Origin: Fistulifera solaris
Taxonomy: Eukaryota
DNA length: 64,000 nt
Direction of reading: 5' to 3'
Assembly: GCA_030295235.1 (NCBI GenBank)
Contig: AP026139.1
Location: forward strand, 62,001 to 126,000
Shown here: piece after piece, positions 594 through 64,000 of the stretch
How the letters are laid out: each line of letters starts with the position of its first letter
How positions within the stretch are numbered: the first letter of the stretch is position 1
Notes under the pieces: generated by a model
Databases searched by the model: none
Seen by the model: the letters and a program-made list of their open reading frames with translations, nothing else
What the model was told of the DNA's origin: nothing
Made by a program: the position numbers and the translations under genes

Positions 594-1834
594 AGAGATA
601 TTGGGGAAAGGAGCTGCCTTGACGATTGAGGGGTCAGGACCATACTATCTTTCTTTTTGGAAGATTGAGCATGGTAGTACATTTCGCCTTATCAAACGGT
701 TCAAAACGGATTCGTAAAATACACTAGAAATAAACATTAGACCTAGACGATGGTTAAAAAAAATCAAGCAGGGCAATTCTTCGTTATCCTGGCGGTGCTG
801 TAGATTTACATGATGTTATGACGAATCCTTCCTCCACCGTGTTTTCTCAGTCCGCTAACGAATAATATCGATAAAGATGGTGAAGCACTACTATTTATGA
901 GCTACGCTCCATGTGACGACTGGCTGAAATGAAATTGTGATGACTACCTGGTACGTGAAGCCAAAGTTATCTCGAAATCAGAGACTTCACAGGACTTTCG
1001 AAATTTGATTAAAATAGAATGAGTAATGCCTCCTTATTATAAAAAATACACTATCGAAGCGATTTGCTACGTTCCTGGTAGCAATGAAGCGTTGATACGT
1101 AGTACGCAATAGCCGATAGGCGTGGCGCGGGACCAAACCATCTTCTCCGACACTACTATTGAGCACCACTGCACGTATCCTTTCATCCACAAAATGTCTG
1201 GCTGGAATCTTTGCAACCACGACCATCCGAAAAACTTTGTTCGAACAGTATTTGCAACGAATTGGAATAGAATGTCCGCAGACAAAAGTTCAAACAATGC
1301 TTGTCACTGGTGAGAAAGCTGAATTGCAAAGTACTACGTACTGTAAGAGGCGGACTGGGGCTGGACTTGACGGTTTAATTGTCCAGTGGGACTACCTGGT
1401 AGTAGAGAATATTTCATCGTCGTCCTTTTTAAGGAAAAAGGGCTTAGTCATTAAACCCACCTTCTGTGCTGGTCTCATAGCTCAATAATGACAAGCATAA
1501 TTAATTTTCATTGCTTGAAGCAAAAAGGAATGCATAATGCACGGCGAAAGTTAATTGTCAAGTCACGGGTCGGAGTGAAACACTGCTCGGCATCATAAAA
1601 TTTGATGCCACAAGGAGAGGATGCGCAAAATCACATCGCCTCGCATCTCTCATAATCTTAAGTTTTGCTCATTTGTAAAGGTAAGAACGCTCAACCGCAT
1701 CCTCGAATTCGTTTTCACAAGATGCGAGCTGTTGAGTCTTTTCTTTGACCTGTACCTCACATCATTGAAGCTTTGCTTTTCATCTTTGTTCTTTCGTCAA
1801 CAGACTTTCTCTATCGCGTCAAGGTCAACCGATC

Positions 1835-4171
1835 ATGTTCTTTTCTTCGTTGTTTCGAGCTTGTTGCGTAGGAGCAACCCTCTGGACTGTCTCCGGTCAA
1901 CGCCCTAGTCAAGGCAGCAACACCGCGTGCTGGACGTGTGACCAGTCCCCTGGCTGTTTTGAATGCGTTTCGAAGGCCAACAACGGCAACGGGACGTCCA
2001 CGGTCAAGCTCGACTTCTCGGGATGCAAGGGTGACGACATCAGCTGGGCCTGTTGCACTGGCTCCACCGGTCCCGACAATGAGTTCAATGCAGGTGAATG
2101 CGACGTGCCCGATTTGGGTTGTTTCGGCAAGGATGACCTCGCAACTGATCCCGAAGGTCCGAAATGCGAAACTGTCAGCACAATGTTTGTTCTTGTTCCC
2201 TCCGACGCCGTTTCTGTGACGATCAACACGCATGACGGAGCAATACGTAATAGTGCCGTCCCGCCTATTGGTGCTGATCCTATATGTGCTGGTGAACAAT
2301 ACCAAGGAGGAAGATGCGCTACTCGTAATAACAGAGTTACAGCACACTGCTTGGAAACGATCGATTTGGCCACCTGCCCTGCTGATCATCCTTCAATTTT
2401 TCTTTCCGAAGCGCCCTCAAAGCCCGTCACCAAGTCACCCTCTATCTCGCCTACGAATGTACCGACGACGACACCAAGTGCACAGCCGACTCCGATTCAG
2501 ACCAAGTCGCCCACTCTTTCGCCTTCGAATATCCCAAGTGCAGAGCCGACGTTGAGCCCTACGAAGCCCCCCACCGTCTCGCCTTCGATTGTTCCGAGTG
2601 CAGAGCCGACAGCGGTCCCGACAAAGCCTCCCACCGTCTCGCCTTCGATTGTTCCAAGTGCAGAGCCGACATCGGTCCCGACAAAGTCTCCCAATATCTT
2701 GCCCTCGGATATCCCAAGTACGGATCCTTCTGTCCCGCCTTCGACTGTTCCAAGTGCAGAGCCGACATCGGTCCCGACAAAGTCTCCCAATATCTTGCCC
2801 TCGGATATCCCAAGTACGGATCCTTCTGTCCCGCCTTCGACTGTTCCAAGTGCAGAGCCGACATCGGTCCCGACAAAGTCTCCCAATATCTTGCCCTCGG
2901 ATATCCCAAGTACGGATCCTTCTGTCCCGCCCTCGAACATCCCAAGTGCAGAGCCGACATCGGTCCCGACAAAGCCTCCCACCGTCTCGCCTTCGACTGT
3001 TCCAAGTGCAGAGCCGACATCGGTCCCGACAAAGTCTCCCAATATCTTGCCCTCGGATATCCCAAGTACGGATCCTTCTGTCCCGCCTTCGACTGTTCCA
3101 AGTGCAGAGCCGACATCGGTCCCGACAAAGTCTCCCAATATCTTGCCCTCGGATATCCCAAGTACGGATCCTTCTGTCCCGCCCTCGAACATCCCAAGTG
3201 CAGAGCCGACATCGGTCCCGACAAAGCCTCCCACCGTCTCGCCTTCGACTGTTCCAAGTGCAGAGCCGACATCGGTCCCGACAAAGTCTCCCAATATCTT
3301 GCCCTCGGATATCCCAAGTACGGATCCTTCTGTCCCGCCTTCGACTGTTCCAAGTGCAGAGCCGACATCGGTCCCGACAAAGTCTCCCAATATCTTGCCC
3401 TCGGATATCCCAAGTACGAATCCTACTGTCCCGCCTTCGACTGTTCCAAGTGCAGAGCCGACATCGGTCCCGACAAAGTCTCCCAATATCTTGCCCTCGG
3501 ATATCCCAAGTACGGATCCCACAGGTTCGCTTTCACACGTTCCAAGCGCAGAGCCGACTTTGAACCCCACAAAGCCTCCCACCGTCTCGCCTTCGATTGT
3601 TCCAAGTACGAAACCGACGCCGGCGCCCACCAAATCTTCAACCCCTATTCCATCGAGCAACCCTAGCGAGACACCGACAGCTTCTCCTACCGTTTCCCCC
3701 ACAGGTATCTGCTTCAACAATCTCGGTGACGTGTGCCGCGAGCGCGTTGACGCCTGTGACATCGAAGAACGCTGCATTGAAGGGGATGATTCTTGCCCGG
3801 ACTGCGATCACAAGTTCACGGGAGGCTTTGCTTTGAAATGTGGCAGGAAAGCGTTTCTGTGTGGTATCCCTGATTTCGCATCGCTTGGATGTAACATTGG
3901 CGGACCTGGGGTCTCCACTGTGGTGAATTTGGCATATCCAGAATGTCTTGAGGATGGAACGATTGAAATTGATTCCACTTGTAAGCGCTTCGACAACGGA
4001 CTCGCTAGTGGTGGATTGGGCCTCAGCGGATATGCCGTGGCAATTTGCACAGACGTCGGCGGCTCGCAATTTTGGACGTGCACGGAGACGGATACGCCGA
4101 GTGACAACGCTCTCGTGACCTTGATCGTTGAAACGAATCCCGACGCATGCGATGATGAATCTGGATTCTAA
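1835..4171 (+). CDS. Secreted mucin-like protein: signal peptide, 14-Cys domain, Pro/Thr/Ser repeat stalk, C-terminal Cys-rich region with disintegrin-like motif
   Basis: 778-aa ORF; hydrophobic N-terminus ending TVSG; repeats SAEPTSVPTKSPNILPSDIPSTDPSVPPSTVP; CRERVDACDIEERCIEGDDSCP. Confidence 0.9.
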   Translation: MFFSSLFRACCVGATLWTVSGQRPSQGSNTACWTCDQSPGCFECVSKANNGNGTSTVKLDFSGCKGDDISWACCTGSTGPDNEFNAGECDVPDLGCFGKDDLATDPEGPKCETVSTMFVLVPSDAVSVTINTHDGAIRNSAVPPIGADPICAGEQYQGGRCATRNNRVTAHCLETIDLATCPADHPSIFLSEAPSKPVTKSPSISPTNVPTTTPSAQPTPIQTKSPTLSPSNIPSAEPTLSPTKPPTVSPSIVPSAEPTAVPTKPPTVSPSIVPSAEPTSVPTKSPNILPSDIPSTDPSVPPSTVPSAEPTSVPTKSPNILPSDIPSTDPSVPPSTVPSAEPTSVPTKSPNILPSDIPSTDPSVPPSNIPSAEPTSVPTKPPTVSPSTVPSAEPTSVPTKSPNILPSDIPSTDPSVPPSTVPSAEPTSVPTKSPNILPSDIPSTDPSVPPSNIPSAEPTSVPTKPPTVSPSTVPSAEPTSVPTKSPNILPSDIPSTDPSVPPSTVPSAEPTSVPTKSPNILPSDIPSTNPTVPPSTVPSAEPTSVPTKSPNILPSDIPSTDPTGSLSHVPSAEPTLNPTKPPTVSPSIVPSTKPTPAPTKSSTPIPSSNPSETPTASPTVSPTGICFNNLGDVCRERVDACDIEERCIEGDDSCPDCDHKFTGGFALKCGRKAFLCGIPDFASLGCNIGGPGVSTVVNLAYPECLEDGTIEIDSTCKRFDNGLASGGLGLSGYAVAICTDVGGSQFWTCTETDTPSDNALVTLIVETNPDACDDESGF
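2537..3605 (+). repeat. Coding minisatellite of 96-bp and 60-bp units
   Basis: Units start AGTGCAGAGCCGAC (e.g. 2657 and 2753, 96 bp apart); near-identical copies. Confidence 0.95.
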
Positions 4172-4585
4172 ACATGCATTGTTGCTTGCGGTTCTTGTTC
4201 CGGTAAAGGAGGTCGAGAAGCTTCTATCATGTGTTGTCTTTTGTAGCTTCGATGGCTTTCCATTTCATCTTTTCTTACTTAGTAGTCTGAACGGCTTATT
4301 AGTCTTCACATTGCGTGTACAAATGATTTTGAAGTTAGATCAATAGCAAAGATCAACAATTGCTCGCAATCAATTGCGTTTTATTGCTGCTTCTGTTGGT
4401 GCAAAACAAAGCCGCAAAAATTCAATCTCCGGGTTCTGTTCTTTGGTCGATAAAATTCCCTACGAGGCCTACGTGAAACTCACGTAGTCATTCGCAACAG
4501 AAAATAAGGCAGTTATTTGTTGTTATGATTTTTTTTATTGATGCTTCATCATTTTACTCGAAAGACTCGCTGTGTAATCTAAACA

Positions 4586-5644
4586 ATGGTCACACGCAAC
4601 TCTAATCTCGTCTTATGGTCCTGCTTGGCGGTCCTGGTAGCCGTGTTTCCTGTCACACGGTGGTTTCTGCTACAATGGTTTTGTCCTCTTGCGCTCCGAA
4701 ATCATTATCAGGCTTTCATTTGGGAGGAATGGTCTTCCTCTGCACAAGTCAAAGTCTCCGCAATGATGCGTCTTGATATTCCGACGGTGAATGTGCAGGT
4801 ATTTGAAAGTGCGAACGCATTGTTAGACCATTTAAATGAGAACTACGGCCCTTCTTGGCGACAAAAACCAGTATTATTGAAAGAAATGTGGACGAAAGAT
4901 CAGTTACAACAATCAAATCGTAATTTATCGTTGCAAGGCTTATTGCAAATGAAGGATTTCAAAATCCCTTACTTTAGCGATGCGTCCCAAACACTCTGGA
5001 CCCCCGATGCGTACGGAACGGTTCAGGAGGTTGTGAAGAACATGACACTTGGTGAACCTCACAAAATCGGTTCGCAACTGTTGATGGAACAGCATCCGTC
5101 GTGGATAGCGCAGATTGCCCCCAATGAGCTTGTTACCACTTTGTTTGGAAACTATTTTACACCCGAAGCTGTTCAGAAACGATGGTGGAGACCTGCACTA
5201 ACGACGGTCCCCGTCTTTGTTGCACACACGCAAACATCGTCATTTACCGCCTTGCATTGTGAACCCATCGGGAATGTCGCCGTTCAATTGCATGGACGAA
5301 AACAGTGGACGCTGGTCGAACCCCAATATTGGAAGCATTTGCAGCCCACCGTGGCTCCCGATGGTCGGGCTTATGTCGCCAGCATGGCAAACTCCATCGA
5401 CGCACCCCATTATACCGTTGTGACGCAAGCCGGGGATGCTTTGTGGGTCCCCACGTGGACGTGGCATCGTGTGGATTATACAACAACAGACACTGCTACG
5501 ACTGATGAAGACGAAGGTGGCATCGCCATTGCCGGATCCTTGTTTCATTTTCGATTTAACGATTATGCGACCCAGAACCCACTGTTTGCTGTTTTGCTCT
5601 TTCCGGCCATGCTACTCGAGTTGATCGGATACAATACGCAATAA
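4586..5644 (+). CDS. JmjC / cupin-like 2-oxoglutarate-Fe(II) oxygenase with N-terminal membrane anchor or signal
   Basis: TALHCEP (HxE), QLHGRKQWTL and GDALWVPTWTWHRV are typical JmjC motifs. Confidence 0.85.
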   Translation: MVTRNSNLVLWSCLAVLVAVFPVTRWFLLQWFCPLALRNHYQAFIWEEWSSSAQVKVSAMMRLDIPTVNVQVFESANALLDHLNENYGPSWRQKPVLLKEMWTKDQLQQSNRNLSLQGLLQMKDFKIPYFSDASQTLWTPDAYGTVQEVVKNMTLGEPHKIGSQLLMEQHPSWIAQIAPNELVTTLFGNYFTPEAVQKRWWRPALTTVPVFVAHTQTSSFTALHCEPIGNVAVQLHGRKQWTLVEPQYWKHLQPTVAPDGRAYVASMANSIDAPHYTVVTQAGDALWVPTWTWHRVDYTTTDTATTDEDEGGIAIAGSLFHFRFNDYATQNPLFAVLLFPAMLLELIGYNTQ

Positions 5645-46410: not shown

Positions 46411-46917
46411 CCGTGCCTGTACCGGTACCGTACCGTACCAGGTACTTGTACCGGTACTTTGTATTATCATCTGTCATCGTTCGTCGTTCGCGAAGAAAAT
46501 GGCAAGTTTTGAATTTTGAATTCAACACTCAACACTTACTTAATGATTAGCGTTCGCAGTTGTCGTTTCGCAGTGTGAGAAGATGAAACAGAACACGTTC
46601 CTTGACTTCATATGCTTCATCGGTTTTCCGTCAGTACATTTTGTAGCATGCACTCAGTGTTTGTTTACTTGGATTTTCCGAAATACAGTCAGTAAGAGTT
46701 GGCGATTATAGCGAGGCCGTGTTTTTATCTTGTATACTACGTACTTGTATACAAACAGTGCTTGCTTGTTTTTTCACGACCCAGACGTTGTGCAATTCGC
46801 CCCACGGCCGTTGGCGATTTTAATTTTGAAGAATGGGAAAAAATTGTCAGGGAATAAAACCTGCATCATATATCAGACATTCATTTGTTTGTTTGTTAAC
46901 TTATCTTAATTGGAAAA

Positions 46918-48429
46918 ATGAGCGTCAAGCAACTGCTGGTACGGCTTATCTTTTTGACATGGGGTATCTCGTTGTGCCTCTCCCAAAGTGCGTTGTCTTC
47001 GGATCAAGCTTCTCCAAGGATCTTGCGAAACCACAACCGAGGAGGAAACAATAATGATAATGATTCAGGTGAAGATACTTCGCATCGCGACCACCGTTCA
47101 AAACCAAGAAGTCATGAAGCGAAACCCAACACGCGATCGGGTCGCAACACGTCTCGTGGCCATTCCGCAACGCGGCCTTCGACGACAAGAACGGATTCAC
47201 GTCGATCCAACAACAGACCAGCGGAAAATCATCATCGTCCGAATGATGACGATGACGATGATGACGATGATTCTTCCAAGCCATCCAAGGCCGGTGGACA
47301 TCATTCTGGATCTCGAAAAACTTCCCGACCAACGCCAAGTCCAGAAACGAATCCGCCGACAGCATCCCGCGTCGAGGAAGGTGATTTGAACATTCGATTT
47401 AATAAAATCACTTACCCCGACGGCGAACCGGCATCATTGCAACTCCCTTTGACCATGGAAGACTATCCGATCACTGCCGAAACGGGTGCCATACTACGGA
47501 CACAATCTCTGGCGGACGCGGTCGTGCTCGAAGATGACTTTGACATGCTTGGAAAGGATCCCTCCCGCTACGTCAACGCGTTGGGTGGGCCTCCGACCTT
47601 TCCCAATGAAGATCCCAATCATCCCTTTTGGGATGACTTGGAAGAAGTTGTCGATTATCAAATCATTCGACGAGAAAACGGTACCACTCCATTCACACTC
47701 CCCATGATCTGGGATGGCTACGATATCAACGATGTGGCCGACGCCGTTCACAACAAATATCCGGGAGGTCACCAAGCGACACTTTTGGGATGGCTGTACA
47801 AGGATGGTCTGGAAGTGGACTATGACGTGATGCCGTTCCGTTCCAATCGCGACATTGTCAGTTTGCAATTCCGTTTTGCCCACTTGAACACGTGGGCCAT
47901 CGAATGCGTGGGAGCGGTCAATTTCTGCATCAAATGGACGTACGGACGTCCCCGTCCCGAAGAAGTGGCGTACCAGATTGCCACGGGACAAATCACGCAA
48001 GGTGTCTCGGAGGAATTGCAAAGCAAGATTGCGTCGATGAATTTGGAAAATGCCACGAGTTTCACCGCGTACCCCGAAGGTTCGCCCTCTCATCCCGCGT
48101 GGCCGGCCATGCATTCGGCCGCCAGTGCGGCTTCTTTGTGGATTTCGGTCGTGGCCAACTTGACTCCTGAACAATACTGTGAAGCACTGCGGGTGGATTA
48201 CGCGGTGGCGTATGCCCGAACGGTCGCCGGGGTCCATTATCCAACCGACAACATTATGGGATTGAATTTAGGTCAAATGATTGTGGCCGAGCGTATGCCC
48301 GATCACTTTGCCGAAAATTTTGGTACAGATCGAGCCAAAATACAAGCGAAGATTGACCGCATGCGATTTGATTGGAATGATTTCAATGTCGATGATTGTT
48401 CCATTGCCGGAGTTCCCATTGTGGGTTAG
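46918..48429 (+). CDS. Secreted vanadium-dependent haloperoxidase-like / PAP2 superfamily protein
   Basis: KWTYGRPRPEE, SPSHPAWPAMHS and ARTVAGVHYPTD are the three PAP2/VHPO motifs; signal peptide. Confidence 0.85.
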   Translation: MSVKQLLVRLIFLTWGISLCLSQSALSSDQASPRILRNHNRGGNNNDNDSGEDTSHRDHRSKPRSHEAKPNTRSGRNTSRGHSATRPSTTRTDSRRSNNRPAENHHRPNDDDDDDDDDSSKPSKAGGHHSGSRKTSRPTPSPETNPPTASRVEEGDLNIRFNKITYPDGEPASLQLPLTMEDYPITAETGAILRTQSLADAVVLEDDFDMLGKDPSRYVNALGGPPTFPNEDPNHPFWDDLEEVVDYQIIRRENGTTPFTLPMIWDGYDINDVADAVHNKYPGGHQATLLGWLYKDGLEVDYDVMPFRSNRDIVSLQFRFAHLNTWAIECVGAVNFCIKWTYGRPRPEEVAYQIATGQITQGVSEELQSKIASMNLENATSFTAYPEGSPSHPAWPAMHSAASAASLWISVVANLTPEQYCEALRVDYAVAYARTVAGVHYPTDNIMGLNLGQMIVAERMPDHFAENFGTDRAKIQAKIDRMRFDWNDFNVDDCSIAGVPIVG

Positions 48430-50860: not shown

Positions 50861-51443
50861 TGCGCCAGAGGGTAAGTCCTTAAGTCCTAATTTTTGGCGA
50901 GAAATGGCCCCCCCTCAGACTCCCCCCCAATGTCAAAGCGAAAAGTGGAACTTTTCGGATAGATGAGTGACAAGGTGACAAGGTGACAATTGACAACAGG
51001 AGGATCGCGTTGCAGGCCGGGACTCAATTTGGATCGAGTCGAGTAAAAAGGGCGCCTACTTTGTACTTGTATAGGTTTCAGGAGATATAGTAAATAGAAC
51101 AGTATAGTATCGCGTGGGAAGTCCGTCAGTCGCTCCGCTTACCAGTTCAAGGCTCACGGCGCTTCGTTTTTGTTGATTGTTGTTAGTTGTTTGTTGATTG
51201 TTGATTGTTGATTATTTAATCGTCTTGGATGATTGATCATTCATCAATATCATCAGTATCAATATCATCAACAAAATCCTTCTTTCGACTGCATTCCTTC
51301 CTTCCTTCTCTCTCTGATTTCTCTGAGATCTCTGAGAGAACCAATAGTCAAGAAAGATTGATCTTTTGTCAACTTTTCCTCTTCTTCTTCTCCTCCTCCT
51401 CCTTCTTCTTCTTTATCGTTCGTTCTACAAACTCTTTCACGTC

Positions 51444-51704
51444 ATGACTAATATTCCTCTTCTTACGGTCCACAGCATTTCGTGTCACGATTTGCAAAAA
51501 CCCGCTGGTCCTTTACAAACGGGGATTGGATTTCTCGATCATATGCTCGATCAAATCAACAGTCATGCGCAAATGGGAATTTCTCTCGTGTTGGAAGGTG
51601 ACTTTCACAACAAAAATCGTCACGCGTCTCACGATCCGGTCAAATTCTTGTCGTTGGTGGGCAAGACTGTCGGGACAGCCTTGTTACCCTATGTGACGAA
51701 CCAC

Positions 51705-51737
<33 letters not shown>

Positions 51738-52706
51738 CCAGTTGTCGTCGTTATTACCTCCTTTTCGTGTCCCCTCGATGAAGCCTTGGTGGAATGTCAA
51801 TTATCGTGTGTCGCGCCCGAACAGGCGGGTTGTGAGTATATTCACTTTACACCTCTCGGAAAATATTCACGTACACATTTAGGACAATTAAATGTTGCCC
51901 AATTGGATGTATTTTGGGAAGCACTGGCCCAAGCGGCGCAATTGAAACTCGTTTTTACCAAAGTACGAGGCGACAATGCACATCATATTATTGAAAGTTC
52001 TTTCAAGGCCTTTTCGAGGGCATTGCGCAATTCTATTGATGCCACGGATTTGTACACTGCCGAAAGTCGGAATGCTCAAGCATCTATAGCCTTGCAACGA
52101 CAGGCATCATTGCAACGAAGTACGAAAGAAACGAGTATTGCCGTAGAATTGCAGTTGGATGGAGGTCGTCCGGCCGGCAGTCAGATTTCGACCGGCCTGC
52201 CGACGTTGGATCGATTTTGGACGCGCGTGGCCGATGCGGCACAATTGACATTAAACATTGCCGCGACTGGTGATTTGTGGATTGATGAACATCATACGGC
52301 CGAAGATGTGGCCATTGCGGTAGGACAATGCTTCGATCAAGCGTTGGGTAGTAAAGCTGGATTGAATCGTATGTGGAGTTGTTCAACGAGTGATGACCTC
52401 CTCCAAGTCATTATGGATTTATCGAATCGACCGTGTTTGGTGCACAATCTGCACTGGGAAACGGAATTTGTGGACCCCGCGGGCGACTTGTCTTGTGAAA
52501 TGATGGAACATGTTTTGGAAAGTTGGGTCGTCAATGCCCGCTGGACGGTGCACATTGTGCAAAACAATCCTACTTCTAGTCGTCGTCGTGCGGTGACAGT
52601 GGATGATTTGGCGATGGCTTTGGGTACTGCCGTACGTTATTGTTGCAGTGTCGATGTCCGACGAGCGGGAGCAACCGCATCAAGTAAGGGAACGCTGTCG
52701 GTGTAA
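51444..52706 (+). CDS. HIS3: Imidazoleglycerol-phosphate dehydratase with an internally duplicated IGPD unit
   Basis: TGIGFLDHML, CPLDEAL, GDNAHHIIESSFKAFSRALR; then RSTKETSI, GDLWIDEHHTAEDVAIAVG, MDLSNRP, ASSKGTL. Confidence 0.93.
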
Positions 52707-53243
52707 AGTATAATAAGAAAGGTCACGATGATTTGCAAAGAAAAGGAAGCAGAGAGAGGCTTAAATGAGGAAGGTTGGTTAAAGAATAATCATCAAAGCT
52801 AGCTCGAACGAACGACTTGTTGACGGTCGACGGGGGAAAGAGGACGACAAAGACGAAAACATGAGAATTCGTTTTCATGACACTGCCATAGATATTTATT
52901 TTACTCCTAATTTCCGTAAAGGCATGACTGACTGACTGACTGACTGACTGCTGGTCGCATACTCCTTTGGCTGTCGTGTCGAAAAGATTTTACGGAGTAC
53001 ATTTTTAGCTGTAGCCAATGAATCCCTGTACGACTCCAATTTTGTGAAAGTGCAGGTCTCACAGAATCCGGTGGTGTCAAAAAAACAGGACGGCCAGTAC
53101 AAATATACAAATATACCTGGTAACTCCAGTGGGGCCACAATACAAAGTATATTAAGCGATGAGAAAACATTCCCGAGGAACCAGGTAAACAACAAACAAA
53201 CAAACGACAATAACTCTATTATTACTATTATTATTATCATCGT

Positions 53244-54302
53244 ATGACGCGATTAAAGCATAACATGACAATCCGGCTGTTACTACGGGCCATTTTTGGT
53301 CTTCTTTTCACGATCGCTCAAGGCAACCAGATGGTTCTTCCTACGACTCCTCGTCACAAATTCTCGCGTTCATTGTTACGACAATGGCGACAACGTCGGA
53401 TTACTACACGACGGCGTTTGTCTTCCAAACAGCAACAACAACAATCTCCTTCTCTCAGTCCTATGCTTTCGTTTCGTCGTCCTACGACACAATCCTTGTT
53501 GCAACAGTTGGGCCATCGGATTCCTCTGTCATCAAAATTCAATCATCCAACAGTAGGTATGACGCATCCTTATTTACAAACCGATCTTAAAACCAGTGTC
53601 GTAGCTTCACGAAGTGACTCTTCCTCGTCTTCTTCTTCTTCTGACGACGACGACGACGACGACGACGACAAGGAATGGTGGCCACCAGTATTGGCATCAC
53701 CGCATCATTGGAGAATTTTGCGGTATCGACAAACGGTTGGGCACGGATGGGAGTGTTATACCCAAGTACGGGATGCGGCCTTACAGTGGGACTTTGCGAC
53801 ATTGCATCAAGGTATTTGTACGTTAGTATCATCACCTTCCTCCCACGATTCGACATTGTTGCCCCGACGACGTGCCGAAATTTTCGATCCCTTGCCCGCG
53901 GCATCGTCGTCCGTTCATCAAATCAGTCACGGTCCAGGACGGCGGCTCGTCACGTATTCGCGAATTCCCTTCTTGCGATTTCTGTTTACCATCAATCCAG
54001 TCCAAGTCATTTATGATATTGTTGATCAAAGAGAATATCCGGTCGTGTATTCGGCGACCGCGTACGCGACAGGAGATCGCCATTTCTTGCAGGGAGAAGA
54101 ACGCGTGACAGTCGCGTATCACGAACGTTCGGGTGCGGTGCAAGTGGAAGTTTTGTCGTGTTCCCGACCGCACGGATGGAAGGGACAATGTGTGTGGCCG
54201 TTCTTGACCAAAATACAAGATCAATTCTTTCGACAACAAATGGAAGCTCTTGCGGCAGAGAGTGCCACGGGTCAAGGAGTGAAAAAATCATCATCATTAT
54301 GA
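53244..54302 (+). CDS. DUF1990 (UPF0548)-like protein with signal peptide and long presequence
   Basis: VGHG..Y..VRDAALQW, INPVQVIY, AYATGDRHFLQGEERVTV, EVLSCSRP. Confidence 0.8.
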   Translation: MTRLKHNMTIRLLLRAIFGLLFTIAQGNQMVLPTTPRHKFSRSLLRQWRQRRITTRRRLSSKQQQQQSPSLSPMLSFRRPTTQSLLQQLGHRIPLSSKFNHPTVGMTHPYLQTDLKTSVVASRSDSSSSSSSSDDDDDDDDDKEWWPPVLASPHHWRILRYRQTVGHGWECYTQVRDAALQWDFATLHQGICTLVSSPSSHDSTLLPRRRAEIFDPLPAASSSVHQISHGPGRRLVTYSRIPFLRFLFTINPVQVIYDIVDQREYPVVYSATAYATGDRHFLQGEERVTVAYHERSGAVQVEVLSCSRPHGWKGQCVWPFLTKIQDQFFRQQMEALAAESATGQGVKKSSSL

Positions 54303-56550: not shown

Positions 56551-59500
56551 ATGTCAAATAACGCAACTCGCAAACGCAAAGCCACGCGCAGTGGATTGAA
56601 GCGATTGATGGAATTGGATCATGTAACGGTGCAAGAAACCTTTCAGTTTGCTTCCGCAAATAATGATGATGATGATGATGAAGCCATCGGTCATGGGGCC
56701 TATATTACCGCCGTCGTACACAACAAACGTTATTACGGAGCCATCATGGATCAAACGACCTTACAAGTCGTGGCGCAACAACAAATGCAAGAGGAACACG
56801 ACAGTTTGGCCTTGAATGAACGCATGAAACAGGCGCAAACCTCTCCAACAGCAGACTATGACGATGCCATGCCCCCGAAACCGATTCAAAAGTTTCGCTA
56901 CAAAGATGGATTGCGGTATTTGCTGGCAACGTATACAAATGCGGCCGCTTTGGATGTAAATCGCGAAGAGATTGTCGCAGTTTGTGACAAAGGGGGTGGG
57001 ATGGTGGGGCCGTTCTATTATCATTATGAAGTACGTGTTGGCTCGATTGGCTCTTTCGTACTTTCTTTTTGATTTTTGTATATGATATACTTACACATGC
57101 CTTCATCTCCTCACCTTCTCGTCCTCAGACACCCCTCCATCCTTAAAAGCCTCCAATGGAACTCCCGATACCCTTTATCATCCTTCCGCGGCCTTTCATA
57201 CGTTCTTGCAATCCACTTTATTGCCACCGTGGTTTCCTTTAGCTTCACAAAGAGTGACATTGCCGGGTCTATTGGCTCCCACTATAACCACGAAATCGAC
57301 GGCCGCTCCTTCCGTCCCTCCCGATCTTTCCTTGCGTCCCATGCAACCACGTTCGCACTACAAAATTGTCATTGTGGGAGGAGGCTTGGCGGGATTGTCG
57401 TGTGCGAAACGATTGTTGATTCAAGCCAAGGAACGGGGGATTCCGGTACACGTCACCGTACTGGAAGCACGAGATCGGTGGGGCGGACGGGTGCACACTC
57501 TGCACAGTACAACGAATCATCATGACGAACCTTCGATTCCACTGGATTTGGGTGCGGCATGGATTCATGGTGTCGATCACAATCCATTGACGCATTTGGC
57601 TTCCACATTCAACTTGGAAGTGTGTCGTCCCGTGTCGGAAACGGTACAAATGCTGAATGCCAATGGACAACCGGTCGATAAGACACTCGATGAACACGTC
57701 AATCGACTGTTTGATCAATTGTTGGATGCAGCTGCCGATGATTGTTGGGGAAATCCGGAAGAATCAGAATCAGCCTTTTCATCCAAGCCGTGGCATCCAA
57801 CCGCCGTCCGTTGGTATGCACAAACGTTGCGGCAGTCTACCAATAAGTTGGATATTCCTTTGGTTCCCGTTCCACCGCATCGAGAGTCGAGTGATATTTC
57901 CTTGGATTGGAGTATCGGACGAGCTTTGGTGCAAAAGAAATTGCGGGCGTTTGAAAATTTGTCCGCCGAGGGCCGTTCCTTGTTGCTGTGGCATGTCAAA
58001 AACTTGGAGTACGCACTGGGCGCTAACGTCAGTGACTTGTCTATGCAGTACTGGGATATTGATGATCGAAACGCGTTTGAGGGAGATCATGTCCTTTTGA
58101 AACGTGGATTCGGATCATTGGTGGATGCATTGTTGCACGATCTACAGACGTTGGCTCCCACTCAATTCGAAGGGCGTTTGTCGTGTCCGGTTCAAAAGAT
58201 CGAATACGGACGAAAAACTTCGACGGCACCCATTGTTGCGGTCGCGACGTCCCTGCAACAACATGAACAACCACCGTTGGTGCCCTTGTCGGATACATGT
58301 AGTGTCACTTTGGTCAATGGCGAGACAATGGATTGTGACTTTGTAATTTCGGCCATGCCATTGGGTGTTCTGGAAACAAGCAGTGAAAGCACAGACGGTG
58401 ACAGAGCCCATGATTGATAGTGGCGAAGAGAATACCATTGCGTTCGATCCGCCGTTGCCATTTTCTAAAGAGGACGCTATTTCGAACATGGGATTTGGCT
58501 TGCTGAATAAGTTATACATGCATTTTGATCGGGCTTTTTGGCGTAAATCCTCCACCAAAGATGTTGCCATGTTTGGAAATACCTCTTTGGTCCATCCGCA
58601 GCATTACATGTTCACTGATGTCGGGCACATCTTGTCTCCGACGAGCAACAAGGAGGATGCCCCCGCTGTTCTAGTGTCGCTCATATCCGGACGGGATGCT
58701 GCGTTGTCGGAGATACTTTCTGAAGCTGAAGTAGTAGAGCAAGCCATGGAAGTATTGCGCACTATTTTTGTTACAGATGAGGTACCAAATCCCGCTCACT
58801 TCAAGCTAACTCATTGGGGAAGAGATCCTTATTCAAGAGGTAGCTACACATTCCTGCCACCCGGCACCACGGATCAAGACTTTACAGTGTTGCAATCTCC
58901 TTTGAATCAGAATGGTGATTCTGTCACGCTTTCTAGCGTAGGAGAAACGATGCGCTTATTTTTCTGCGGAGAGCATACTACAGCATTACACCCCAGTCTG
59001 GCACACGGTGCATGGCTGTCAGGTGTGCGAGCTGCCGAGCAAGTCGTGCAAACCATGACAATGGAGTTCGGAAATACTAGCAATTCAACGAATACAGACC
59101 GCTGGATCCCTCTGTCTTTGTATCGACATCACAATCCACAGACAGATTTGAGTTGTCATCTGTGCCACCATAGTGGCACCACTGTAAGGGAAGGAACCCT
59201 GTTAGCCTTCGCACGCGGGACGCGACAAGTGGTTGTCCACAACGCTTGTGCGGAATGGAGTCCGGAAGTAGAAGTAATGGAAGAACAATGGAAGAATGTT
59301 GTGTCCTGTGTTAATCGTGCACAGCGCTTTTTGTGTTCTTTGTGCGAACGTACAGGGGCGAGTATAGGATGCTCGAATGGAACTTGCCATGCTCAATATC
59401 ATTTTCGGTGTGCAGAAGATACCGGATGGCGATTCGAAACGCAGGGTAAAGAATTTATGTGCGGTAGACACCGGAGTGGCAATGACTGTGTACGAGTATC

Positions 59501-60514
59501 TCTTTCTTATTACAAACAGCAGAACCCCTGGGTATCCGATGAGCTTGTTTGCTGTTTGTGCAAGAAAATCCGGGGTGAGATGCTAGCGTTTCAACTCAGC
59601 ACACCATCATGGTCTGCACCGCAATACGCTGTTGCCCATACTACCTGCGTACAACACAGCAATCTGGTGGATTTGGAACTGGATCGCAGTAGTCGATTGG
59701 AGTTCGACTATCGTAAGATTGGTACCTTGCTCGAATCGGCCAGGCCTTGCAGCTTGTGTAAAAATACAGGGGCGACGATTCGATGTCGCCATTGCAATCA
59801 ATGCTATCATTATGAGTGTGCTGTTTCAACCAAATGGAAGTTTAACAAAAACGTTCGTTCTGTTGCCCGGATCATCGAACGAATCGATTTAATATCACCA
59901 ACCCGACCGCCGCCCGTGTTGCCGTTACTTCAGATTCAGAAACACCGGCCTCGTTCTTTCAACACGCTCTCTTCTCTATGAATGACAGCTCACATGCTCA
60001 AGAAGATATCCCGGGGAATCTTGACATTACTAATACACGCTTGGAAGACATTTATGACGATAAAGAAGACGAGGATACGGAAAGTTCTTGGACGAGTGAT
60101 AGCGAAAGCGAATCCGATAAAAGCGAAGGACAGGAAGAAGTTGGAGAGGAGTTGCAAAGGATTGCTGAAGATTCAAACGGCGGCGGGACTCCCGCGCAAA
60201 ACTTGGAATGCAGTGATATTTTGACAGTGCCAGAAGAGGAGGGACAAAGTCACTTGTGTCGTCTACACCGCCAGTCGATTGGCGCTTTGTGGAACGTCGA
60301 CTTTATTGTCACACGCCGCACGGGTTGTGCTTCCTTACTGCAGATTGCTGCTGCGCGCACGGATCCTTTCGACAATTTGCGCGACGGCGACACGGTCTTG
60401 GCCATCAATGGTCTGCGCATTGGCGAGGCAGGATTCGATACGCTCGACCAGATTCTAGCGCGTCTAAGACAGGAAGTGGATACACTGATGGAGGTGCAGC
60501 GAAAGGCATGGTAG
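56551..60514 (+). CDS. LSD1/KDM1-like FAD amine oxidase with two PHD-like fingers and a PDZ-like C-terminus; intron ~57031-57128, frameshifts ~58370 and ~59850
   Basis: IVGGGLAGL..LEARDRWGGRV, DLGAAWIHG, NLEYA, GFGLLNKL, WGRDPYSRGSY, FCGEHT..HGAWLSG; CSLC...GASIGC..YHFRCA; LRDGDTVLAING; intron GTACGT..CTCAG (junction phase off by one). Confidence 0.82.
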
Positions 60515-61047
60515 ACAGTTTTTCAGAGGCATGGGGTGAACAATTTGTGATGTTCAAAAAGTGGCACCGATAGCACTCTGTAGTTTTAGACTGGGTCACC
60601 ATAGTTTTGTGGATTGCTACTCCGCGTTTATTACCACTCGGTAGTCGTTTAAACTGAGGCAGTTCACAATGACGGTTCTTCGTCGTGGAAACGCACCGAA
60701 CAATCATCCGGAATGTACTTCTACCTTCTACCTGGTACAGCGAGCCTTCTACACACTTTGTCAAGTTCCGTGTGTTCGCCTCGAACATTGGAGATTCCTT
60801 CATGTCCATTCCTGTGCCGAATGCGAAACCGACCCATCAAATAATATAGAGTAGAGAGTAGAACGGTTGACGAAAGAGAACGCACGAGAAGAAAGGCAAG
60901 GTTTTGAATCCGAACCCATCGTAGGAATATACAGGCCACAACGATCAGCATCCAATCACCATTCTCACGGATCACAAAAACCAATCAACGATTTTTAAGA
61001 AGACAAGAAAAGGAGAAGAAAAAAAGAACGCAATCCAAAAAGACACC

Positions 61048-64000
61048 ATGTTCAAGCCCAAGACTGTCTTGTCGCACAAAGTCCGACTATCCTACTCAGA
61101 CTCCAATCGTCTCGACAAGAAAAGTGCACCTTGGCGCAAGAATTTCGGATCCTTTCCGTCTCTACGATCGGATGAAGACTTGGAGCAATTGGGGGATGAA
61201 TGGATCATCGGCGACGCCTCAAAATTGCCAAGACTGGACGCTCCGGAAGCCTTTCCGGGCGATTGCAACGTGAAAGAATACGTTTTGGAGCACGTGACGC
61301 CCTACGACGGCGATGCGTCCTTCCTCGCGCCCGCGACGGAACGAACCAAGAAAACCTGGGCCCGCTGTGAAGAACTCATGGAATTAGAACGGCAACGAGG
61401 AATTTTGGACGTAGATACCAAGACACCTTCGACTATCACGAGCCACGGACCTGGTTATGTACTGAGCAAGGAAGAAGATGTCATTTACGGTTTGCAAACG
61501 GAAGAGCCACTGAAACGGGCCTGCAAGCCTTTGGGTGGCTTTAAAGTGGTGCAAGGAGCTTTGGAAAGTTATGGATACAAGGCAGATCCGGAAATGGCCA
61601 AGATTTACACAACGCAAGTTCCAACACACAACGATACGGTCTTTAGCATGTACACCAAGGAAATGCGCGCGGCTCGTCACAGTCATTTGTTGACCGGATT
61701 ACCCGATGCCTACGGACGTGGACGTATCATTGGTGACTATCGCCGACTCGCTCTCTATGGAACCGATGATTTGATTCGTCGTAAGAAGCTTGACTACGAT
61801 GCGCTCAAAGGTACCGCCACGGAAACGATGCACCTCCGGTCCGAAATCACGCAACAAGTTAAAGGTTTGAAAGAGCTTACCGTCATGTCCGATGCGTACG
61901 GTGTGGATGTCCGAAAGCCCGCGAAAACGTTCAAGGAAGCCGTTCAGTTTATGTGGTTAGGTCATACCGCGGCATTGAAGCAGCAAGATGGAGCTGCTAT
62001 GTCCATCGGACGTTGGGATGCCTTTTGGATATTTATGCGGAGAAGGATCTAGCGGAGGGAACCGTGACGGAGCAAGAAATACAAGAAATTATTGACGATG
62101 TGGTGATCAAGATGCGACTGGTCCGCCACTTGCGCCCTCCTGCATACAATGAGCTGTTCTCCGGCGATCCGACTTGGCTGACGATTGCTTTGGGCGGCTG
62201 CAAAGAAGACGGCACGAGTCTCGTCACTAAGACTTCCTATCGCTTCTTGCACACTCTTACCAATTTAGGGCCTGCACCCGAGCCAAACTTGACAGTGCTT
62301 TGGTCTCAAAACTTGCCCAACAACTTCAAGGAATACTGCGCTCAGCAATCCATCGACACGTCATCCATTCAGTACGAGAACGACGATATGATGCGACAAG
62401 TATTCGGCTGTGATTACGGCATCGCGTGTTGCGTATCAGGTATGCGTCTTGGAGTTGACATGCAATTCTTCGGTGCAAGAACCAACATGGTGAAGCTTTT
62501 GCTCATGTGCTTGAACGGCGGTAGAGACGAAATGCACGGTGATAAATTGTGTCCCGAACTCGAAGCCGAATGCGCAAAGCTGGGAATTGGAAAAGGTGAC
62601 GAAGACAGACCCATCAGCTTCGAGCAGATTGAACGACTGTACTTTGATATTGCCATGCCGTGGATGGCCAAGCTGTACGCTGAGACGATGAATACAATCC
62701 ACTATTCGCATGATCGCGCTTGCTATGAAAACTTGCAAATGGCACTGCATAACTCCAATGTGAACCGCTTGATGGCTTTTGGGTGCGCTGGACTCTCGGT
62801 TGTCGCTGACTCCCTGGCCGCAATCAAGTATGATGATGTCTTCCCCGTTCGTAACGATGCGGATCTTACAGTCGGCTTCCGCCGTGCACACCCCAATCGA
62901 GAGATTCCTCAGTTCGGCAACGATGACGACCGTGTGGATTCGTTAGCGGTCCGCGTTTGCTCTCGATTCTACGATGAATTGAACAAGCAACCGTTGTACC
63001 GCAATGCAAAAGCCACTCTTTCCATTTTGACCATTACGTCCAACTTGGTGTACGGAAAGGCAACTGGGGCGAGTCCAGATGGACGGGCGTCAGGAGAATC
63101 CTTCGCGCCTGGTTGCAATCCCATGCACGGCCGTGATAAGAACGGAGCTTTGGCGTCTCTCAGTTCGGTGACAAAAATTCCGTATGCCAAGTGTATGGAT
63201 GGAGTTTCCAATACATTCTGTCTGTTGCCGAACGCATTGGGACAGCCAAAGAACCGTAAATCCAACTTGGCTACCCTGTTAGACGGCTACTTCGCGCACA
63301 ATGGTCATCACATCAATATCAACGTTCTAAGCCGAGACATACTGAGGGACGCTCATCTTCACCCCGAGAAATACCCCAATTTGACCATTCGCGTTAGTGG
63401 TTACGCAGTTCGCTTCTGCCGTCTTACTCCCGAGCAGCGTGAGGAAGTGATGGCGCGCACGATGCACTCCTCCAGTGTCGTCACCATGGCCCATGCCGAC
63501 AAAAATCACGAATTGTACGGTTCCGATATGGAAGAAAAGAAACAAGAAGAAGTCCAAATTGAGGAGATAGAAGGTGTAGTTGAAGGCAATGCAGTATTGG
63601 GTAGCGTTTACTCGTTCGAAACGTTTTCGACAACGGATGGACCTGGAATTCGAACGAACGTGTTTTTGCAAGGTTGTCCCAAGAAGTGTACTTTCTGCTG
63701 CAACCCAGAGACACAAGCTCTGGCCAACCCCAAGGATCATCCGGAATTCGCCATGTCTTCGGCAGAAGTGGCTTCGTTGGTCAGCAAATACTCTGAATGG
63801 CTCAAACCCCGCGGTGGCGGAATCACCGTTTCGGGAGGAGAAGCTTTGGTGCAGTCTGATTTCGTAAGCGACTTATTCCAGAAGATTCACGAGGAAGGCT
63901 TGACAACTTGTTTGGACACAGCCTGCTTTGGCAACAAGGCCCGCTGGGACAAGGTTCTACCTCACACCGATAACGTCTTGTTGTGTATGAAAGGCATGAA
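61048..64000 (+). CDS. PFL: Pyruvate formate-lyase fused in frame to PFL-activating enzyme (3'-truncated by window); frameshift at T-run 62023-62026
   Basis: [26 protein letters not shown] (62427-62432); [11 protein letters not shown] (Gly 63399-63401); no stop before [27 protein letters not shown] (63675-63698) and [10 protein letters not shown]. Confidence 0.95.

Follow-up and report, generated by a model that had tools for sequence, protein, structure and literature searches.

Gene layout and domain identity

The window analysed here is a 64,000-nt stretch of the Fistulifera solaris contig AP026139.1 (positions 62,001–126,000, forward strand), and all coordinates below are positions within it. 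At its downstream end lies a gene that encodes a pyruvate formate-lyase (PFL) and, in one frame with it, a radical S-adenosylmethionine (SAM) activating enzyme of the PflA type, the two being joined by an acidic linker. By sequence, the gene product is PFL plus PflA, with every defining motif present. A preliminary description of this DNA had proposed such a fusion in an alga, and the Pfam and NCBIfam matches, the alignments to the Escherichia coli proteins and the intact catalytic motifs reported here all bear it out.

A stop-to-stop scan yields two overlapping frames on the + strand, 60925..62052 (375 aa) and 61863..63998 (712 aa). The second has no stop before the window end, in agreement with the stop-free frame described earlier from ~62028 onwards. 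Within the first frame the earliest ATG lies at 61048; the gene begins there and runs past the window end. The preliminary description had placed this start correctly and had overlooked the frame break at 62023–62026, which contigs from public sequencing runs show to be an assembly error. The features of the locus are as follows.

61048..62025, + strand: 5′ portion of the gene, frame A, codons 1–326, ending ...GRWDAF; an N-terminal extension of ~70 codons, then the PFL-like start
62023..62026, + strand: T4 homopolymer at the frame break; T4 in the window, T5 in the contigs of four runs
62025..63473, + strand: remainder of the PFL domain, frame B, with the Cys-Cys pair, RVSGY and the C-terminal tail ...ARTMHS
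62427–62432, + strand: Cys-Cys pair, within ACC at 62424–62432
63390–63404, + strand: RVSGY glycyl-radical motif, Gly codon at 63399–63401
63474..63593, + strand: acidic linker of ~40 aa (SVVTM...VEGNA), without a stop, matching neither E. coli protein
63594..63998, + strand: first 135 residues of the PflA domain by alignment to 3c8f_A, continuing beyond the window
63636–63653, + strand: DGPGIR, in the PflA part
63675–63698, + strand: CPKKCTFC (CxxxCxxC), in the PflA part
63831–63842, + strand: SGGE, in the PflA part

The window thus holds 135 of the ~258 PflA residues. A second copy of the protein, P0002, is 1109 aa long (~124 kDa) and, at ~95% identity, displays the full domain architecture. 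ACC, RVSGY, the linker string, DGPGIR, CxxxCxxC and SGGE all occur in the translation from 62028, as first described, at a level far beyond chance.

Profile searches, which had been suggested as a check, matched all three of the domains named for it. In Pfam, PFL-like (PF02901) is divided between frame A (profile 8–285 of 647, E=1.1e-59) and frame B (285–647 of 647, E=1.2e-108), Gly_radical (PF01228) is matched over its whole length (1–106 of 106, E=1.3e-34), and the PflA part matches Fer4_12 (1.4e-11) and Radical_SAM (1.9e-08, profile 3–87 of 166, clipped by the window end). In NCBIfam, the window protein matches TIGR01255 at 1.5e-191 and TIGR02493 (PFLA) at 1.9e-36 (profile 2–127 of 235). 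P0002 scores 956.6 bits against TIGR01255, the true PFL equivalog (curated bacterial cut-off 994.2), with the next family at 226.9, and 196.9 bits against TIGR02493, the true PFLA equivalog (curated bacterial cut-off 231.75).

The PFL part aligns with residues 284–757 of E. coli PflB (1h16_A, E=2.6e-159). Here, ACC falls on A417–C419, making the Cys pair C418/C419, and RVSGY falls on R731–Y735, making its Gly G734. The PflA part aligns with residues 2–132 of E. coli PflA (3c8f_A, E=2.4e-23), with its three Cys at C29/C33/C36. An adjacent Cys-Cys pair distinguishes PFL from glycyl radical enzymes (GREs) with a single Cys, DGxGxR and GGE are PflA motifs, GGE serving SAM binding, and CX3CX2C ligates the [4Fe-4S] cluster. 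PFL homology stops two residues short of the E. coli C-terminus and PflA homology begins at E. coli residue 2; the homology boundaries therefore describe two proteins joined end to end through ~40 non-matching residues. There is no separate start codon for the PflA domain at the homology boundary.

The activase is, by sequence, of the short PflA type, without the ferredoxin-like two-cluster insert. TIGR02493 gives one contiguous match (profile 2–231 of 235) over P0002 residues 857–1095, TIGR02494-type activases match P0002 with lower scores and in two stretches, and in the window PflA part Pfam finds no Fer4 domain, only Fer4_12 and Radical_SAM.

The linker, first described as ~45 aa long, measures ~40 aa by homology. 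The radical Gly and the first Cys of the PflA cluster motif lie 92 residues apart in the window protein, and a 38-residue linker stretch taken at fixed offsets from these two residues contains 11 D/E and 3 K/R. Two Met codons lie within the linker (VTMAH, SDMEEKK). An AlphaFold2 model of P0002 has both domains folded, with a mean predicted local distance difference test (pLDDT) of 80.1 and a predicted template modelling score of 0.83. Its pLDDT is below 50 at residues 1–49 and at residues 808–838, which span most of the linker together with the last part of the PFL tail, so that the linker is predicted to be disordered. A further stretch with pLDDT below 50, P0002 residues 666–701 (window ~63030–63140, the [11 protein letters not shown]...NPMHGRD region), is conserved even so, and its counterpart in the E. 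coli structure, to which it aligns well, is ordered.

The N-terminal extension of ~70 aa is hydrophilic, and no signal-peptide-like hydrophobic stretch is present at the N-terminus (maximum 11-residue Kyte–Doolittle mean 0.34). On these grounds the most likely location of the protein is probably the cytosol. An Rfam scan of the whole window returned zero RNA family matches.

Algal relatives, the linker and its origin

The junction is widespread. A query comprising residues 440–657 of the window fragment was compared with 5.8 billion proteins, giving 7415 matches among 7994 scored candidates; the counts that follow cover the best 120 of the 7415. All 120 carry the PFL–PflA junction, 115 by motif and 5 as shortened copies. 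The 115 have both the Gly_radical and Radical_SAM Pfam domains, and RVSGY is followed by CxxxCxxC 74–188 residues further on. The other five have the junction cut short, four after GCPKKC and one that begins at the PFL tail ...MHSGSV. These four, P0114, P0117, P0118 and P0119, are diatom-like metagenome proteins that pass into unrelated sequence a few residues beyond GCPKKC; it looks as if an intron divides the CxxxCxxC motif in those species, and there is none at this point in the window gene.

Diatom fusions are found in Epithemia clementina (ACA910_011136, P0027), Cyclostephanos tholiformis (ACHAXA_010545, P0035), Seminavis robusta (Sro702_g189870, P0039), Thalassiosira profunda (P0093) and another Thalassiosira sp., which answers the call for a survey of other diatoms. 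Fusions also occur in Chromera velia (A0A0G4FZB3, P0087), the dinoflagellate Polarella glacialis (P0108), the green alga Pycnococcus provasolii (P0116) and transcripts of Euglena (P0120, P0121). The nearest named relatives among the best 120 are diatoms, with 73% and 69% junction identity, and against P0002 at full length the nearest named diatom relatives reach 76% and 71%; this supports a diatom-like alga as the source of the DNA.

The named algal fusions share with the window protein the domain order, the invariant catalytic residues and a ...RTMH(S/G/T) tail, at 39–73% junction identity. They differ in the length and sequence of the linker, and many non-diatom members lack the N-terminal extension and begin directly at the PFL domain. 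In P0002 numbering, C463, C464, R784, V785, G787 and Y788 of the PFL part are invariant in 39/39 full-length fusions, as are D867, G868, P869, R872, C880, C884, C887, S932, G933 and G934 of the activase part.

The architecture, PF02901–PF01228–PF04055 in Pfam terms, is thus already present in public databases for many algae and is not new, as the preliminary description had allowed. Database names for these proteins are usually just ‘formate C-acetyltransferase’ or ‘hypothetical protein’. A natural PFL–PFLA fusion was not found described in the literature, by a search that missed the papers likeliest to mention one and reached others in part. According to the accessible portion of one paper, only T. 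pseudonana among four diatom genomes surveyed encodes PFL (PMC10407231, citing Atteia et al. 2013). A preprint on T. pseudonana under anoxia reports detection of the PFL protein, and the word ‘activating’ does not occur in the portion of its text at hand (10.64898/2026.07.20.739533).

The linkers of 116 fusions, delimited by fixed offsets, are 20–134 aa long (median 34), and 88/116 carry a net negative charge. A DIEDL-like motif occurs in 17/116, compared with a shuffled mean of 1.15 and a shuffled maximum of 5, mostly outside the clade of the window protein. DIEDL, DIEDF, DVEDL and similar strings are seen in the linkers of P0060, P0104, P0108, P0111, P0116, P0120, P0121 and others, spanning dinoflagellate, euglenid, green-algal and other sequences. 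The strict pattern is absent from the window’s own clade, and the window linker has only the looser QIEEIEG.

Transcription across the linker was assessed from public runs in which the stretch was searched for. Four runs of one organism from one study, X1–X4, contain 0.65–0.92 of the sampled words, and their contigs (Logan contigs, not raw reads) were aligned over 60600–64000. Runs X5–X8 contain 0.05–0.14 of the sampled words, and no conclusion is drawn from them. In X2–X4 the depth is zero at 60600–60941 and is present in every bin from ~61056 to 64000, including the linker. X1 has a flat depth of ~19, also upstream of the gene. By this pattern X2–X4 look like RNA and X1 looks like DNA, the RNA label itself being a guess. 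No spliced joints are reported in the X1–X4 contigs over 60600–64000, which argues that no intron is spliced out, and in all four runs the contigs extend 69 letters beyond 63998. Cover over the junction, one of the checks put forward earlier, is continuous across the linker in X2–X4, and no contig among those listed bridges the whole junction; the contigs are probably short because two variants fragment the assembly. The data are consistent with one transcript across PFL, linker and PflA in Fistulifera solaris. Complete fused open reading frames (ORFs) also occur in the transcriptome assemblies of other species, including MMETSP, Trinity and Euglena assemblies.

These data bear on the possibility that the fused ORF yields two proteins, either because a protease cuts the linker or because translation also initiates at a Met within it, so that PFL and a sub-stoichiometric free activase would act as they do in bacteria. 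A linker that is predicted to be disordered, that varies in length (20–134 aa) and sequence and that contains two Met codons in the window copy would suit such a scheme, and the DIEDL-like motif, at 17/116 against 1.15 in shuffled linkers, could be a recognition site. However, no Met and no motif is conserved over the 116 linkers, the nearest diatom relatives lack strict DIEDL, and no recurrent transcript boundary falls in the linker, the loose ends being single contigs scattered across the gene. We consider this outcome unlikely, though it is the likeliest of the alternatives considered.

The order of the two domains recalls that of bacterial genes. A prokaryote scan with the fusion alignment, limited to one genome per species, was evaluated for the best 80 of 599 related stretches. 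In 68/80, a PflA start follows the end of PFL on the same strand, and 0/68 are fused, which agrees with the earlier statement that the two proteins are normally separate. The distance from the pflB stop to the equivalent of the PflA domain start ranges from -14 to 374 nt over these 68 loci (median 32 nt). Ten of the other 12 have no PflA match in the DNA examined, and 2 end before the PFL end. Two loci come from viral collections, and the one with both genes (L082:4110–4300) has pflB and pflA side by side as separate genes, divided by a stop codon and ~30 nt of spacer.

Since the fusion keeps the operon gene order and has a linker of roughly spacer size, it looks, from sequence comparison, like a collapsed bacterial operon. 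On this model, a laterally acquired pflB–pflA operon would have lost the pflB stop codon in a eukaryote and the short intergenic spacer would have become the linker. The loss of the stop codon would let one monocistronic eukaryotic mRNA encode both partners.

The frame break and the second copy

The two frames of the window gene divide the PFL-like profile exactly at position 285. They join at ...GRWDAF / LDIYAEKDL..., where the E. coli sequence is contiguous, and with the profile split at this one position no room is left for an intron, which is therefore excluded. One added T places L after F326 in one continuous frame (...[13 protein letters not shown]...), and the corresponding stretch of P0002 is [15 protein letters not shown]. 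The extra T behind 62022 is present in contigs of all four runs, with depths (with the T/total) of 53.1/53.1 in X1 (2 contigs, so both variants), 84047.7/104810.2 in X2, 33016.2/53522 in X3 and 27233.3/30759.8 in X4. Short loose contig ends, at 62023/62026, appear to be this T insertion after clipping. Because the contigs of all four runs insert one T, the break stems from an indel that the assembly introduced into the homopolymer, and the gene itself is intact.

A second variant of the gene is present in the same runs, with a nucleotide difference of ~7–9% (for example, 18 differences in a 226-nt contig). The two variants have similar depth in the DNA-like X1 (21.8 and 25.9) and almost all their differences are synonymous, which suggests a highly heterozygous or two-subgenome diatom. 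By tblastn, P0002 residues 1–328 map to 61048–62025 at 94.8% identity and residues 319–987 map to 61971–63998 at 95.4%, colinear and gap-free, so that there is no room for introns. Of the two variants, P0002 is more like the second, with at least one listed difference that does not fit.

Allele differences number 196 in total, of which 40 were listed and examined. Among these 40, which fall on either side of the break, 37 affect the third codon position and 37 leave the amino acid unchanged; by this sequence measure purifying selection acts on both sides and both copies are under selection. Segment by segment, 246/255 and 476/484 residues of the PFL domain are identical to those of P0002, as are 135/136 in the PflA part, 65/73 in the N-terminal extension and 33/39 in the linker. 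Within the linker, the second variant also has GAT inserted in frame behind 63524, which adds one Asp (17.8 of 34.7 depth in X1). A stop or indel in the linker had been named among the observations that would count against a fusion; this insertion leaves the frame open. Judging from the segment identities and the GAT insertion, both catalytic domains are conserved, while the linker drifts and tolerates length change yet keeps its frame.

The window sequence does have T4, and it could be asked whether the missing T is real and this copy a pseudogene, only the P0002-like copy being functional. A neighbouring gene at 57086–59981 also shifts frame without an intron, through either assembly indel error or real decay. 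Such a reading is highly improbable given that the extra T is present at full depth in X1 (53.1/53.1, both variants) and in most of the X2–X4 depth, that 37/40 of the differences between the copies, on either side of the break, are synonymous, and that no further stop or indel disrupts the ~2950 nt. That two adjacent genes are merely read through by chance or mis-assembled, with no fusion protein, has a negligible probability: a 40-codon spacer would be stop-free by chance in ~15% of cases (an estimate, (61/64)^40) and prokaryote-style ORF callers read through eukaryotic features, but the junction is open in the best 120/120 relatives with differing linker lengths and in transcript-derived complete ORFs, the linker stays in frame despite a 3-nt indel between copies, and the PflA domain lacks a start codon of its own at the homology boundary.

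It is therefore likely that the locus is an intact, intronless and expressed nuclear gene of a diatom-type alga, encoding a single PFL–linker–PflA polypeptide of ~1107 aa. Several points weigh against this assignment. The window sequence itself is interrupted by the frame break and ends ~120 codons short of the end of the gene, so that the completeness of the gene rests on the second copy P0002 and the 69-nt contig overhang. The contigs all come from one study, which possibly includes the sample behind the window assembly; among those listed none bridges the whole junction, and the RNA label is a guess. The NCBIfam scores of P0002 lie slightly under the curated bacterial cut-offs for PFL and PFLA alike, and AlphaFold2 confidence is low at residues 666–701, inside the PFL domain.

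The neighbour at 57086–59981 (+) is an LSD1-like gene, with an amine oxidase domain and PHD-type zinc fingers, that is also split over two overlapping frames. At the junction near 58368–58376 the Amino_oxidase profile breaks at 260/261, leaving no room for an intron, and one surplus base in or beside an A-run would account for the change of frame. This is probably a second assembly indel and fits a general indel error in the assembly. Other ORFs in the window encode a PT-repeat protein (1769–4171), a JmjC/cupin protein (4583–5644), a PAP2 phosphatase (46900–48429), an imidazoleglycerol-phosphate dehydratase (51348–52706) and a DUF1990 protein (53214–54302). These five are ordinary eukaryotic ORFs, none tied to fermentation, and a Pfam scan of 19 long ORFs left 12 without a match.

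Proposed mechanism and comparison with known systems

The accessible parts of several papers describe the reaction in two-protein systems. PFLA activates PFL as a radical-SAM enzyme with a CX3CX2C-bound [4Fe-4S] cluster, by H abstraction from the PFL glycine, and oxygen irreversibly inactivates the radical form of PFL (PMC8003979). The Gly loop is buried and its exposure needs a large conformational change, and a complete model of the PFL/PFL-AE complex is still lacking (PMC9326890). In catalysis the radical moves from G734 to the C418/C419 pair (PMC12338860).

In the fusion, the PflA domain would, under anoxia, take an electron from a low-potential donor and cleave SAM. It would then abstract H from the RVSGY glycine, ~65 residues upstream of its own first residue. 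The target glycine could be on the same chain (cis) or on the partner in a PFL dimer (trans), the linker being more than long enough for both. The Gly radical, acting through the Cys-Cys pair, would convert pyruvate and coenzyme A (CoA) to acetyl-CoA and formate, and the tether would impose 1:1 stoichiometry and co-localisation.

Oxygen cleaves E. coli PFL at G734. In the fusion, oxygen attack on the radical would likewise break the polypeptide at the Gly, leaving the activase on the smaller of the two fragments. For P0002, a cut at the radical Gly (G787) gives calculated fragments of 88.0 kDa and 36.3 kDa. The ~36 kDa piece, comprising the radical-domain tail, linker and PflA, might re-activate intact molecules or serve as a GrcA-type spare part. 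By analogy, self-activation and release of an activase fragment by oxygen are plausible. That the fusion is a functional device, in which the tethered activase works in cis or on the dimer partner and O2 sheds a reusable activase fragment of ~36 kDa, is a speculative proposal to which we give a low probability.

As a sequence feature the fusion is ordinary, since the architecture occurs in >100 database clusters and in several algal lineages. Should the proposed device be real, it would provide sediment diatoms with a built-in reset through anoxic–oxic cycles. As a naturally occurring covalent 1:1 pair, the fusion could be useful for trapping the PFL/PFL-AE activation complex in structural work. 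The fusion may also represent a clean case of a bacterial two-gene operon turned into a single eukaryotic ORF, with the order kept and a linker near spacer size. In addition, a fused activase would explain why the T. pseudonana anoxia preprint, in the portion of its text at hand, reports no separate one (10.64898/2026.07.20.739533).

The closest structural references are E. coli PflB (1H16) and PflA (3C8F/3CB8). PflB shares with the fusion the PFL barrel, Cys418/Cys419, the RVSGY Gly734 loop and the C-terminal radical domain; PflA shares DGxGxR, CX3CX2C and GGE; and the gene order, pflB then pflA, is likewise the same. In bacteria, however, the two are separate polypeptides from adjacent genes, whereas the window gene encodes one chain with a linker of ~40 aa, an N-terminal extension of ~70 aa and a forced 1:1 ratio of activase.

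Chlamydomonas reinhardtii PFL1/PFLA is likewise a eukaryotic algal PFL system, active in dark anoxic fermentation (PMC3660698, PMC8003979, both in their accessible parts). There, PFL1 works with a separate PFLA of ~20 kDa and is dually targeted to chloroplast and mitochondria, according to the accessible text of PMC8003979. The window protein, in contrast to PFL1, has an N-terminus without a signal-peptide-like stretch.

A further search against 50%-identity representatives added little besides one fusion in the reverse order, P0222 (1095 aa). It likewise combines a GRE and a radical-SAM activase in one chain, but its activase is N-terminal with ferredoxin-like Fer4 inserts and its PFL-like GRE is C-terminal, at 36% identity to the query. 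By sequence, P0222 belongs to another GRE class and is an independent fusion, so that the joining of a GRE to its activase has arisen more than once. HydEF, PNO (PFO plus a flavoprotein domain) and ADHE of algae, as described in the accessible parts of PMC8003979, PMC6732389 and PMC3660698, are further cases in which separate partners have likewise been joined. They belong to unrelated families, and their likeness to the PFL–PflA fusion is one of evolutionary logic only.

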